Positions 1-58,011 of a stretch of 64,000 bases of DNA are shown piece after piece. Position numbers and translations under genes: made by a program. The stretch is from Acidobacteriota bacterium. GTDB lineage: Bacteria > Acidobacteriota > UBA6911. Positions within the stretch are counted from its first letter, which is position 1. Each line of letters starts with the position of its first letter. The notes under the pieces are model-generated. The model had not been told where the DNA came from. It did not search any database and saw only the letters and a list, made by a program, of their open reading frames with translations. Location: contig OY761556.1 of NCBI GenBank assembly GCA_963664705.1, forward strand, positions 768,001 to 832,000, written 5' to 3'.

Positions 1-1594
1 GTTCCAGCCCCTGTTTTCCCATTGGAGCCATCATGCCCGACGCAATGGAGTTGGCCCAGTAAACGCCTGCGGGCACTTCCGAATTCTTGGACAGCCACTC
101 GGAGAATGCCTCTTTGGTTTGAAAGCCCTGCGCGGTCTTAAGCAGCTTGGCGACCGACGGGTCCATAATAAGCGTTGCGGCTCCCGTTGCCGCGAGTACG
201 CGCGTGAAATCGCGCATCAATAATTGTGGCGGATAATGCTCCACGACGGACCCCGAGCAATTCACGAAGTTCCATCCCGAGAACATGGAGAGAACGCTTT
301 CCTCCGCTTTGTGCCCCATCTGTACATGAATGGGTTTCCAGCCCTCCGGCAGAGCCTCCTCATTTTCCGCGATGGTCACATTGTTGTAGCGCAGTGGATT
401 ACTCAGGGAAGAGAATCCGGTTATGCCCTCGATGTAACCCTGCAGAGCGCTATGCATCAGGGTCATCGCTCGACCAATGACAGAATTAGCTTCGGCATTC
501 GGCCCCAGGGCGCCCTCTCCCGAGTTCATTCCGATTTGTTTGCGAATCGGTCCGTTGATCAGCACCATGCTTGCATTGGATGTGGTGGAATCCATGAAGG
601 GAACCTGGGTAGACAAGGCCAGCAATACAGGCATGTATTCAGGCTTTGCCCCAGCCATTACACCGATGATTGCTACTTTTTCAACTGTAAATGGACGGAT
701 AGTTCCAAAGACGCCGGCGTCTTTCTTGATCAGTTCATCCGGCTTGTGGCTGGTGCCTTTGAGCATTGCCTTCACTCTCTCTTCGGTTGGGAGAATGACA
801 GGATTGTAGTCCGTCCAGCCTTTATCCTTGAACAGCCGCTGCAGATTGTCTTCCGTGTCCGGAGGCAAAAATCTGGGTTCGGGGGCTGACTCGGAAGGAA
901 GCCCGGTTTTCTTTTCCTCGGCGGTCAAGGGCCTGGTCAGATTGTCGACAATCGCCTGCATCAAGGGTTTGCCGCTGACTTTGTCTCTGCCGTCGAGATA
1001 GGATTTCAGGCTGTCTTTACTGAGGCCAGTAAAAGGATACGGTACGCCAACCCAGCGGAGCGGCATGCCGGAGTTGTATTTGAAATAGGCGTTCATGCCA
1101 TAGTTCACGACGTTTTCGTTCGCGAGCGGTACGGTGGGAATGCCATATTGTTTTTCCAGGGTCTGAGAGAAACGGCTCACGGCCGATAGGCATCCCCATC
1201 AGCCAGCCACGCCGATGATGGCGGCGCTGCCCTTATTGGCGCCGATCTCCTTCCACAAGGCCGGATCATCCGCAACGTAATTGCCGCTTTTCAGCTTGAG
1301 AATGGTCTTTACGCCAGGCTTGTTCTTTGCAAACCAGGCCTGCATTTCCTCCAGCACCGGAAGGCGGCCGAATCCTTCGTAGTTCGTGTCCACAATATAA
1401 ACGGTTTTGCCTTCAAGCGCGTCAAGCCGTGGAGCCAGGGGAATTCGCTCGGCAAGTTTGTCTGTGAGACCAGGACTCATAACCGTTATTTTTTCCTTGG
1501 ACGCGTCACCTGCGGCATGAGATGGTCCGATGCTGCATAGTACCAGGCCCGCGATCGCCAGCAGGCTATACAACAAGAGCGGCGTTCTTTTCAT
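1..1594 (-). CDS. Exported UGSC-family selenoprotein (Sec at codon 132, UWGC motif); 3' end runs off the window
   Basis: GGAGG RBS before ATG 1594 and a signal peptide. The in-frame TGA at 1199-1201 reads GVAG-U-WGC, and the frame stays open for 399 more codons, including GWTDYNPVILPTEERVKAML and TVEKVAIIGVMAGAKPEY. The ORF track stops at the TGA. Confidence 0.8.
1163..1198 (-). promoter_or_regulatory. Putative bacterial SECIS hairpin
   Basis: 13 nt after the UGA lies stem CGGC/GCCG with loop CGUGA (G at loop position 2). A weak lower stem is possible. Confidence 0.5.
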
Positions 1595-1716
1595 TTTTCC
1601 TCCACTGAGATGACCGTTGGCGGCCATGTCCACAGTCGTTGCCATACAAGAAAAGCATTGATTAGGAAATTGAGGCTATTGTAACGAAAACGGGAATTAT
1701 GCGATAGCAAAGATCG

Positions 1717-2805: not shown

Positions 2806-4995
2806 ATGAAGTGGTTCTATAACATGAACATTGCTACGAAGCTGACGTTTTTTTCGCTTGCAATGGTATTGGTGGCGGGAGTGGTCGGTTATGTGGGGAT
2901 TACGGAACTGGGCAATCTCAGTCAGGCCGACCTGGCCATGTACAGAATTAACGTAGTGCCTCTCGGGCAGGTTGCCCAGGCATCGAAAAACTATCAGATG
3001 CTTCGCGTTGGTGTGCGCGATGCCATGCTGGCGGAAAACAAGGAATCGAAAGAGCAGGCCTATGGGACGGTTAACGAAAAGATAAAACAGTTGATGGGCT
3101 TCATCAAAGATTATGAAAGCATCATTGCCTCGAAGGAAGAAAGAGATGTCTACGATACCTTCAAATCGAGTGTCCAAAAGTATGCGGAGGACTTCGAGGT
3201 CTTTCGGAAACTTCTGGATGCAAAGCAAAAGAATGATGCCTTGAAGTACATGCATGGCCCCTTCCTTGTCGTTGCCAAGGAAGGGCTGGCGGCGATGGAT
3301 CAACTGGTCAAATTCAACACCGAACAGGCCCGGGCAAGTTCGGACAATAACCTGGCGCTGGCGAGTTCGGCTCGGAACGTGATGCTGGTTATTCTGGGCG
3401 TCACCGCTTTCATGGGCATAGGGCTTGGGCTGTGGATCTCCCGCCTCATTTCCAACCCGATCAAGCAGGTGGCAGAGCGTGCGGAAAGACTTCAATCGGT
3501 CTGCATTGCCAACCTTGGCAAAGCCAGTGAAGCGATGGCGCACGGTATTCTTGATGTTACGGTGGAGACAGATACCGAACTGCTGCAGATAGAGAGCAAG
3601 GATGAAGTGGGTAAGCTGGCGAGAAGCGTCAACGGGATCATCAGCCAGACTCAGTCGACTATTGGTTCATTTGAGGCGGCAATGGCTAACCTCCGGCACG
3701 TAACCGACGAGATCAATGGCATGATCCGGAGTGCTCAGGCCGGCGACCTTTCGAATCGCGGCAAGGCAGATCAGTTTGAAGGAGGCTATCGGCAGATGGT
3801 GTTCGGATTCAACGCCACGCTGGATGCCGTCGTCGGACCGCTGCAGATGGCTTCCACCTATATCGATCGCATCAGCAAAGGCGACATCCCGTCGAATATC
3901 ACCGAACACTACAATGGTGATTTCAACGCGATCAAGAACAGCCTGAACCTTTGCATCGATACACTCCGAGCTCTTATCGAGGAGGACGGCGGAGCGGCGC
4001 TGCTGGCTGCGGCCAACAAAGATCTGACGGCCCGCGCCAAACGCCAATACCAGGGTGCTTTTGAGAAAATGAGAAATAACATCAATACCCTGATTGGAAA
4101 TCTCGATGACGCCCTTGTTCAGGTAACGCTTGCCGCCGAACAGGTTGCATCCGCATCGGGACAGATTTCTTCCGGAAGCCAGACCCTGTCGCAGGGTTCC
4201 TCGGAGCAGGCGAGCTCGCTCGAGGAAGTGACCAGCTGCATTCAGGAAATGGCATCAATGGCCAGGAGAAATGCCGAGAATGCGAAGGAAGCGCGAAGCC
4301 TCTCTGAAGGCGCGCTGTCGACGGCGGACCGCGGCGTTGAAAGCATGAAGCGGCTCTCCGCGGCAATCAACCGTATCAAGGCATCGTCCGATTCGACCGC
4401 AAAGATCGTCAAGACAATTGACGAGATTGCTTTCCAGACCAATCTGCTTGCCCTCAATGCGGCGGTTGAGGCCGCCCGCGCCGGAGATGCCGGGAAAGGG
4501 TTTGCTGTCGTTGCCGAGGAAGTCCGCAACCTTGCCATGCGCAGCGCGGAGGCAGCCAAGAACACAGCCAACATGATCGAGGAATCCGTCAAGAATGCGG
4601 AGGGTGGTGTTTCCATCAACCAGGAAGTTTTAAATAATCTTACCGAGATCAACACTCAGGTGAATAAAGTCAGCGCCGTGATGGCTGAAATAGCCGCTGC
4701 ATCCGATCAGCAAAGCCAGGGCGTTGAGCAGGTCAATACTGCGTTTGAGCAAATGAATCAGGTAACACAGCAGATGGCAGCCAATGCTGAGGAATCGGCA
4801 AGCGCTTCGGAGGAACTGTCGGGACAGGCCGAAGAGATGAAGGGGATGGTTGGGGCTTTCCGTTTGACCAATGTTTCGGGAAAAGCGGTTCGGACCAATC
4901 GTCAGGCTCCCAGGCAGACGGCAGACCTGGCTCCGGGACTCAAAAAGCCTTTTGAGGCTCCAGGTTTTGCTTCGAACAGTTCCGCCGGTTGGTAG
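2806..4995 (+). CDS. Methyl-accepting chemotaxis protein (4HB sensor, multiple HAMP domains)
   Basis: Two TM helices, HAMP repeats, signalling tip [37 protein letters not shown]; RBS GGGAGG. Confidence 0.95.
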
Positions 4996-34829: not shown

Positions 34830-34906
34830 GGGCCTATAGCTCAGTTGGCTAGAGCGCACCCCTGATAAGGGTGAGGTCGGTAGTTCGACTCTACCTAGGC
34901 CCACCA
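34830..34906 (+). tRNA. tRNA-Ile(GAT)
   Basis: GGGCCTA...CTGATAA...TAGGCCC-ACCA, 77 nt. Confidence 0.97.
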
Positions 34907-34938
34907 CAACTGTTCGGTCGGAAAATATTTGACCAATC

Positions 34939-35014
34939 GGGGGTATAGCTCAGCTGGAAGAGCACCTGCTTTGCAAGCAGGGGGTCAGCGGTTCAAATCC
35001 GCTTACCTCCACCA
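34939..35014 (+). tRNA. tRNA-Ala(TGC)
   Basis: GGGGGTA...TTTGCAA...TACCTCC-ACCA with G3:U70. Confidence 0.97.

Positions 35015-57934: not shown

Positions 57935-58011
<77 letters not shown>

Follow-up and report, generated by a model that had tools for sequence, protein, structure and literature searches.

At the left end of a 64,000-nucleotide stretch from an Acidobacteriota bacterium (assembly GCA_963664705.1, contig OY761556.1, here called C1), the minus strand carries a gene with an in-frame UGA at codon 132, and sequence comparison across the genus and beyond makes it very likely that this codon is read as selenocysteine (Sec). We refer to the whole stretch, C1:768001-832000, as the window. 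On balance we favor, as a rather probable reading, one 584-codon UGSC/Unknown_1 gene in which the UGA encodes Sec and whose product is exported and acts as a selenol/thiol reductase in the periplasm. By its sequence, the gene is a member of the catalogued UGSC/Unknown_1 fusion selenoprotein family. A sequence-only reading of this DNA had presented the protein as hidden; it is no new type of protein, the pairing having been in print since Zhang and Gladyshev (PLoS Genet 2008; PMC2398784), the available text of which describes the UGSC/Unknown_1 fusion in Global Ocean Sampling reads. What is new here relative to print is a group with the motif U-W-G-C, the exported forms and the size of the expansion to which the gene belongs. 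None of the three was found in the available text of the literature on UGSC selenoproteins and acidobacterial selenoproteomes, and in the accessible part of a 2026 review (PMC13188914) the words 'signal peptide', 'periplasm' and 'secreted' occur zero times.

One reading frame through the UGA

With TGA translated as Sec, a single frame runs from the start codon to the window edge and holds no other stop. The sequence-only reading had located the TGA in the context G-V-A-G-TGA-W-G-C and had counted 399 further open codons; we find both as described, the TGA at 1201-1199 on the minus strand and the open codons at window 1198-2. The left window edge cuts the gene, which occupies C1:767843-769594 (minus strand) in the genome and encodes 584 residues beginning MKRTP; it continues for 159 nt beyond the edge, on the far side of which are the last 53 codons and the stop. 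As for the earlier proposal of one exported selenoprotein of at least 531 residues with Sec132, the single frame stands and reaches 584 residues at full length, and the export is a prediction only. A Shine-Dalgarno-like site lies ahead of the ATG (Table 1), and a GGAG/GAGG-type site precedes the equivalent start at 12 of 12 orthologue loci (that of the gene under study and 11 others). A scan around the gene returned no promoter-like sites, and terminator-like sites were rarer than in shuffled sequences.

Under translation table 11 the same frame is listed as two open reading frames (ORFs), 1199-1645 (148 aa) and 2-1180 (393 aa, GTG start, end open). Gene callers split it likewise, as had been anticipated: each of the best 120 among 2312 database relatives spans just 73-76% of the query, namely the portion beyond the TGA. 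The source of one of these 120 calls it "UGSC family (seleno)protein".

The UGA is conserved and exchanges with cysteine

Thirty relatives were searched by tblastn. All 18 same-genus genomes among them had an orthologue with exactly one in-frame TGA, 70-79% identical both before and after that codon and aligned straight through it; in other genera of the class, matches were seen in only 2 of 12 genomes, both weak. G-U-W-G-C is kept at all 12 orthologue loci, and by sequence the U-W-G-C dipeptide variant is the mark of one orthologue group.

A search with a 21-row alignment gave 95 family genes at 78 loci of Acidobacteriota, Chloroflexota, Actinomycetota, Thermodesulfobacteriota, several Proteobacteria and others. 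The column of codon 132 holds TGA in 83 of these genes, TGC or TGT in 11 and Leu in 1 (two of the 83 are misaligned by at least one column and were counted from the stop printed in its context). G-V-G-H-U-S-T-C and G-V-G-H-C-S-T-C occur in otherwise identical contexts, and in full-length database homologues the site reads CSTC, CPGC or CGSC, with CxxC in P0138, P0140, P0147, P0150 and P0181. Cys/TGA pairing at this codon and homology that continues past the TGA, both expected on the sequence-only reading, are seen: the 18 genus alignments cross the TGA, and so does the Pfam UGSC match (PF24696; 36.7 bits against a gathering threshold of 25), which covers profile positions 2-156 of 172. Because that match extends over residues 38-197, it is one UGSC domain that crosses the TGA.

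All 120 of the best database matches are annotated by gene callers as though the TGA were a true stop, and a GTG does lie 6 codons past it. The locus would then hold either two genes, for a 131-residue secreted peptide and a 446-residue protein from the GTG at window 1180, or a pseudogene. We give this almost no credence, since the TGA is crossed by a single Pfam domain, by a single strand-helix unit and by a confidently modelled fold. All 18 genus genomes retain the TGA, and elsewhere only Cys codons (11) or Leu (1) take its place. Further, the homologues with Cys at this column are single proteins.

A hairpin downstream of the UGA

The hairpin claimed by the sequence-only reading, with a CGUGA loop 13 nt past the UGA, is present, positions 1185-1182 pairing with 1176-1173 around a loop at 1181-1177. 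In a gapless alignment of 17 sequences (the gene under study, 11 orthologues and 5 close paralogues), 97.6% of the cells of a 5-bp stem are paired; none of 500 shuffles was as high, and sliding the partner by 1-3 columns reduced the value to 27-59%. The closing position, 1186/1172, is G-C in 9 sequences, U-A in 7 and an unpaired U-U in 1, the gene under study. The other four stem pairs are nearly invariant, and the covariation amounts to one pair, among related sequences.

In relatives the hairpin is likewise conserved at 12-13 nt past the UGA, and distant paralogue groups have other stems at nearly equal distance, such as GCCGGC-AGUU-GUCGGC. Across 31 paralogues of the same genome, the 42 nt past the UGA fold with a mean of -12.2 kcal/mol, compared to -8.6 kcal/mol in 620 in-gene control windows (Mann-Whitney p = 1e-6). 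An Rfam scan of window 1050-1300 gave a single chance-level match (CyVA-1, 15 bits versus 41.4). We infer that the hairpin is a selenocysteine insertion sequence (SECIS)-like element, to which SelB is predicted to bind.

Selenocysteine machinery of the genome

The genome was checked for Sec machinery, and all of selA, selB, selD and tRNA-Sec were found. The three genes score above curated cut-offs and each is present twice, as is tRNA-Sec; one of the two selD genes has an in-frame TGA. Two of the tRNAs identified by ARAGORN combine the anticodon UCA with an acceptor stem of 8 bp and a long variable arm; another candidate, 72 nt in length, is probably false, its acceptor stem being mismatched. 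One set is clustered at 3.07 Mb, where selB-selA face selD-tRNA-Sec. Because SelB gave one match only in 18 of the 21 genus genomes, the second set looks peculiar to a few genomes, and it may have been acquired. These 18 carry the family nonetheless, which weakened the idea that two SelB/tRNA-Sec sets serve two hairpin classes.

Two SelB genes and two UCA-anticodon tRNAs would also suit decoding of the UGA as Cys, through a look-alike of tRNA-Sec that has a SelB copy to itself, in line with the selC*/selB* idea for some Deltaproteobacteria (PMC5389517, available text). We regard this as very improbable. Both tRNAs are of the 8/5 tRNA-Sec shape and, by reading of the ARAGORN drawings, have a G before the CCA end, where tRNA-Cys identity calls for a U. 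The duplication extends to selA, which a Cys system would not need, and in the 18 of 21 genus genomes where SelB has a single match, the TGA-bearing family is kept all the same.

Domain architecture and structural model

The AlphaFold2 model of the whole chain is confident, with a predicted local distance difference test (pLDDT) score of 91.0 and a predicted template modelling (pTM) score of 0.89 (82-row alignment); residues 1-25 alone are disordered. The N-terminal domain is modelled as five strand-helix units, with Sec132 between strand 123-130 and helix 133-150. Such a strand-helix junction is the usual place of a redox-active CxxC. Foldseek matches the modelled domain to flavodoxin-like domains (probability 0.97-0.99; TM-score 0.23 by target). 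For UGSC, a thioredoxin fold had been guessed in 2008 (PMC2398784, available text). In the model, the UGSC domain packs confidently on the C-terminal domain.

The C-terminal 'Unknown_1' domain carries the motifs GWTD...PTE, VMAG, NGP, IGRA and AENEE, and its invariant polar residues are D262, T270, E271, R375, N370 and E410. An exhaustive search with this domain gave 3242 clusters at 50% identity, and the gene under study aligns over both domains with full-length homologues. The C-terminal 340 residues had no Pfam or NCBIfam matches at E up to 1. Modelled alone, the domain reaches a pLDDT of 92.5.

In both structural searches its best match was 7xky_A, the alpha subunit of a class I fumarate hydratase, and the match is weak: Foldseek gave E 3.6e-4, a TM-score of 0.21-0.25 and a root-mean-square deviation (rmsd) of about 17 A over the full alignment, and VIA-align gave Z 5.5 with an rmsd of 4.0 over 91 residues. 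A Z of 7-8 is typical of unrelated best matches. Against 48,161 chains, VIA-align returned no match with Z of at least 8, and the matched rows were mostly model residues 124-333. Given this TM-score, a Z below 7-8 and conserved columns that are without a cluster-holding cysteine, class I fumarate hydratase is probably not a relative. A sequence search of solved structures with the family profile found none below E 0.047, and the ESM Atlas returned UGSC-labelled or unnamed clusters only, with no usable named cluster once PF24696 was excluded. As modelled, the C-terminal domain folds confidently and its fold matches nothing solved, and we treat it as unexplained. For the same two reasons, a solved structure of the domain would probably reveal a new active site.

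Predicted export

The protein is likely exported, and we hold this with good confidence. K and R at positions 2-3 precede a hydrophobic core, and S-H-A stands ahead of A-G; the most hydrophobic 12-residue stretch has a mean Kyte-Doolittle value of 2.77, with K/R within the first 10 positions, and model residues 1-25 have pLDDT <50. Signal-peptide-like N-termini are present at 12 of 12 orthologue loci and in 18 of 21 paralogue genes, so that the features of the signal peptide noticed earlier recur, by a hydrophobicity heuristic, at every orthologue locus examined. Since this N-terminus is without a twin arginine and has a strongly hydrophobic core, the Sec translocon is the more likely route.

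Among the 95 genes of other genomes, a signal is absent from 55, 26 have a twin-arginine signal, 13 have a signal without twin arginine and 1 is unjudged. Exported members come in Sec-type, twin-arginine-type and lipoprotein forms, and the existence of several such types means that the chemistry must also work outside the cytoplasm. With signal-bearing and signal-free members alike, the family would work on both sides of the membrane, and the twin-arginine signals suggest that some of these selenoproteins would be exported already folded. A twin-arginine start of the type N-R-R-K-L-L-S-L-L-G is seen in many Acidobacteriota members and in one Verrucomicrobiia genome.

Paralogue expansion

A tblastn search of the protein against its own genome gave 35 matches. 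The column holds TGA in 31, all with Cys at +3; three of the other four have Leu, Ser or Gly and no stop, and one falls short of the column. By motif, the 31 comprise G-U-x-G/S-C (10), G-H-U-S-x-C (14) and U-G-S-C (7, six of them G-D-U-G-S-C). With the TGA-containing selD counted as well, predicted selenoprotein genes in the genome number at least 32. For bacterial selenoproteomes, the records in print stand at 46, 57 and 63 genes in the available text of two papers (PMC12013277, PMC13188914). Across the genus, family matches number 8-43 per genome.

It is tempting to speculate, although we consider it unlikely as a whole, that the genus has radiated a mostly exported, Sec-dependent reductase family of 8-43 copies per genome, each adapted to its own small substrate, which would be imported across the outer membrane. 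If true, periplasmic selenium chemistry would be a major, undescribed part of the processing of organic matter by soil bacteria, and one family alone would rank this genome among the larger printed bacterial selenoproteomes. The gene under study is ordinary in kind, yet it is part of a striking expansion. As annotation pipelines split such genes, some thirty selenoproteins are lost from view together in a genome of this sort.

Gene neighbourhoods

We took as neighbours the clustered ORFs within 6 kb of the 78 related loci. The commonest, at 20 loci, belongs to the pyridine nucleotide-disulfide oxidoreductases; it has about 310 residues, and its gene usually comes next downstream on the same strand. 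Five representatives align with the full length of TIGR01292, the thioredoxin reductase model, at 254-308 bits, the equivalog cut-off being 343. This thioredoxin-reductase-like gene is found at 20 of the 47 loci with a signal-free family gene and at 0 of the 31 exported loci (the loci are mutually related, so that the split does not amount to a statistical test). Its presence fits NAD(P)H-driven recycling of a redox pair in the cytoplasm, and the flavoprotein is a candidate dedicated reductant of the UGSC module, probably the one that serves cytoplasmic members. The neighbour thereby names a probable reductant that can be tested.

At 8 of the 31 exported loci, and at 0 of the 47 others, the next gene downstream encodes a secreted protein of about 190 residues that matches DUF4352; homologues of this protein come after 8 paralogues in the genome under study. 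Such a secreted or lipoprotein-type protein is thus seen downstream of exported G-H-U-S-x-C members both in this genome and in other phyla. A representative from another phylum matches DUF4352 at 34.9 bits; the copies of this genome have no Pfam matches and are homologous by BLASTP, at E 1e-14 to 1e-92.

Other recurrent neighbours elsewhere are parts of ATP-binding cassette (ABC) transporters, solute-binding proteins, a short-chain dehydrogenase, an amidohydrolase, pyrroloquinoline quinone (PQQ) dehydrogenases and cytochrome c. In the genome under study, outer-membrane proteins like TonB-dependent receptors lie near 9 of the 35 paralogues, tungsten-type aldehyde:ferredoxin oxidoreductases near 6 and molybdenum hydroxylases near 4 (Table 1).

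The ORFs flanking the gene itself had no Pfam matches except for a chemotaxis receptor. This methyl-accepting chemotaxis protein (window 2806-4995, plus strand) is divergent from the selenoprotein gene, lies 1.2 kb upstream of it and combines a four-helix-bundle sensor with HAMP domains and an MCP signalling domain. Further along the window, tRNA-Ile(GAU) and tRNA-Ala(UGC) stand side by side at 34830-35014, the usual spacer pair of a ribosomal RNA operon, and a tRNA-Met follows at 57935-58011.

Table 1. Positions of the features discussed (window coordinates unless preceded by C1 or L)
Feature	Position	Strand	Basis or remark
Coding sequence, codons 1-531 of 584	1..1594	minus	Single open frame with TGA read as U
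Shine-Dalgarno-like GGAGG	1599..1603	minus	4 nt ahead of ATG 1594-1592
Predicted signal peptide, residues 1-27, MKRTPLLLYSLLAIAGLVLCSIGPSHA then AG	1514..1594	minus	Hydrophobicity heuristic; cleavage site inferred
UGSC domain, residues 38-197, modelled as flavodoxin-like alpha/beta	1004..1483	minus	PF24696, AlphaFold2 and Foldseek
TGA, predicted Sec codon 132, context G-V-A-G-TGA-W-G-C	1199..1201	minus	Conservation and Sec/Cys pairing
TGC, Cys135, the C of U-W-G-C	1190..1192	minus	Cys at +3 in 31/31 TGA-bearing paralogues
SECIS-like hairpin, stem CGGC/GCCG, loop CGUGA	1172..1186	minus	Alignment of 17 sequences
C-terminal 'Unknown_1' domain, residues ~245-584 (in the window to residue 531)	1..862	minus	VMAG-x-PEYMP...NGP block
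Duplicated Sec machinery	C1:3072623-3078309, 3461774-3463132, 3657373-3659256, 2046792-2047721, 6559014-6559112
Thioredoxin-reductase-like neighbour	L049, L054, L063, L071, L075, L076, L084, L086-L089, L093, L096, L098-L100, L102, L103, L105, L113
~190-residue protein	C1:2644072-2644644, 2635433-2635999 and six more; loci L055, L056, L064, L070, L081, L104, L110, L111
Twin-arginine members	L041, L042, L046, L050, L060, L065, L069, L072, L081, L091, L094, L097, L104, L106-L108, L110, L111
TonB-dependent-receptor-like outer-membrane proteins near paralogues	C1:6848815-6853182 and eight more
Tungsten-type aldehyde:ferredoxin oxidoreductases near paralogues	C1:6761734-6763779 and five more
Molybdenum hydroxylases near paralogues	C1:4055767-4058166 and three more

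Proposed mechanism and alternative roles

For the reductase we propose a mechanism that we consider conceivable, if somewhat short of probable. SelB with Sec-tRNA would recognize the hairpin 12-13 nt past the UGA, and Sec would be inserted at position 132. The signal peptide would direct the protein through the inner membrane and would then be cleaved. A small substrate would be bound by the C-terminal domain and attacked by the selenolate of Sec132; Cys135, the putative resolving cysteine, would resolve the adduct to give a selenylsulfide, and a periplasmic reductant from outside the protein would re-reduce the Sec132/Cys135 pair.

Several observations weigh against an exported, Sec-dependent reductase. 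The NCBIfam equivalog model for the family, NF041046 (UGSC_fam), scores 20.9 bits against a cut-off of 125 and matches residues 114-199 only. Several full-length homologues are without the redox motif altogether, which implies that the C-terminal domain can do something without it. The hairpin of this gene is the weakest of its group, having 4 bp and a U-U at the base, and an 86-nt local fold prefers a different, 10-bp stem that contains the UGA (z = -2.0; 5 of 200 shuffles as stable). We did not take that stem as functional: in an alignment judged by eye, the orthologues have lost two of its pairs and have kept the CGGC/GCCG hairpin. The call of a signal peptide comes from a hydrophobicity heuristic only, and the nearest out-group relatives (59-61% identity, U-H-G-C) have Tat-like RR signals, which makes the export route uncertain. 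Finally, the orthologue group to which the gene belongs has no conserved neighbours in about 1.5 kb of flank at the 11 orthologue loci and no linked reductant, and the one DsbD-type membrane electron carrier gene of the genome is about 105 kb away.

That no reductant gene is linked would suit an oxidase, and a UxxC at the N-terminus of a helix, where Sec132 is modelled, is an established design of Dsb and thioredoxin-type proteins. The same exported selenoprotein might then act on proteins, as a periplasmic thiol-disulfide (selenylsulfide) oxidoreductase or isomerase with the C-terminal domain as its client-binding module. We think this improbable, given that the invariant polar residues of the C-terminal domain are typical of a small-molecule site and that relatives adjoin ABC transporters, solute-binding proteins, dehydrogenases and amidohydrolases. 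TonB-dependent-receptor-like genes in 9 of 35 paralogue neighbourhoods also speak against protein clients, and thirty diverged paralogues suit many substrates better than one housekeeping job.

Less probable again is a detoxifying or binding role, in which the pair would bind or reduce a metal, a metalloid, a chalcogen oxyanion or a peroxide in the periplasm. Selenol/thiol pairs are well established as binders of soft metals and reducers of peroxides. Many catalogued prokaryotic selenoproteins are of such a sort (PMC13188914, available text). However, neither metal-resistance nor peroxide-stress genes recur beside family members in the neighbourhoods of the 78 loci or of the paralogues in this genome, and a large conserved second domain is not needed for such a role.

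Comparison with known systems

The gene that we read as encoding an exported selenol/thiol reductase resembles the printed UGSC/Unknown_1 fusions (PMC2398784, available text) in having an N-terminal UxxC module followed by Unknown_1, with the VMAG-x-PEYMP ... NGP block. The block AIIGVMAGAKPEYMPVLLAL...LINGPIRKQIGMN here corresponds to the rows AVNGVMAGCRPEYMP...NGP of Figure S1A in that paper, which also notes stand-alone Unknown_1 proteins in a few organisms. Our gene differs in having U-W-G-C in place of U-G-S-C and VMAGA in place of the printed VMAGC, as well as a predicted signal peptide and about thirty copies in a single genome; export goes unmentioned in the available text. UGSC is among the commonest selenoprotein families of aquatic metagenomes, still, nearly twenty years on, with no function given in what is available of two accounts (PMC2398784, PMC13188914).

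The protein is also like the UGSC family (seleno)proteins of PF24696/NF041046, in that PF24696 matches above gathering, Sec occupies the same column with Cys after two further residues, and a SECIS-like hairpin follows. Unlike the stand-alone UGSC-containing protein of NF041046, it is fused, has WG as the dipeptide and scores 20.9 against 125 bits; on these sequence grounds, the gene is not an equivalog of the small stand-alone protein.

GrdB and PrdB, the B selenoproteins of glycine reductase and D-proline reductase, which carry a UxxC, are similar in working logic only, although a remote relation is conceivable. Their Pfam profile, PF07355 (GRDB), was unmatched by the protein at E up to 1, a pyruvoyl-type partner was not seen, and the member described here is predicted to be exported, unlike GrdB/PrdB; a Pfam GRDB search of the whole genome gave no matches, with the controls of the same search silent as well. 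The logic held in common is that of a UxxC selenoprotein joined to a substrate-handling partner. GrdB/PrdB are recycled by a thioredoxin reductase system, grd operons carrying trxB, and cytoplasmic relatives of our gene adjoin a thioredoxin-reductase-like gene.

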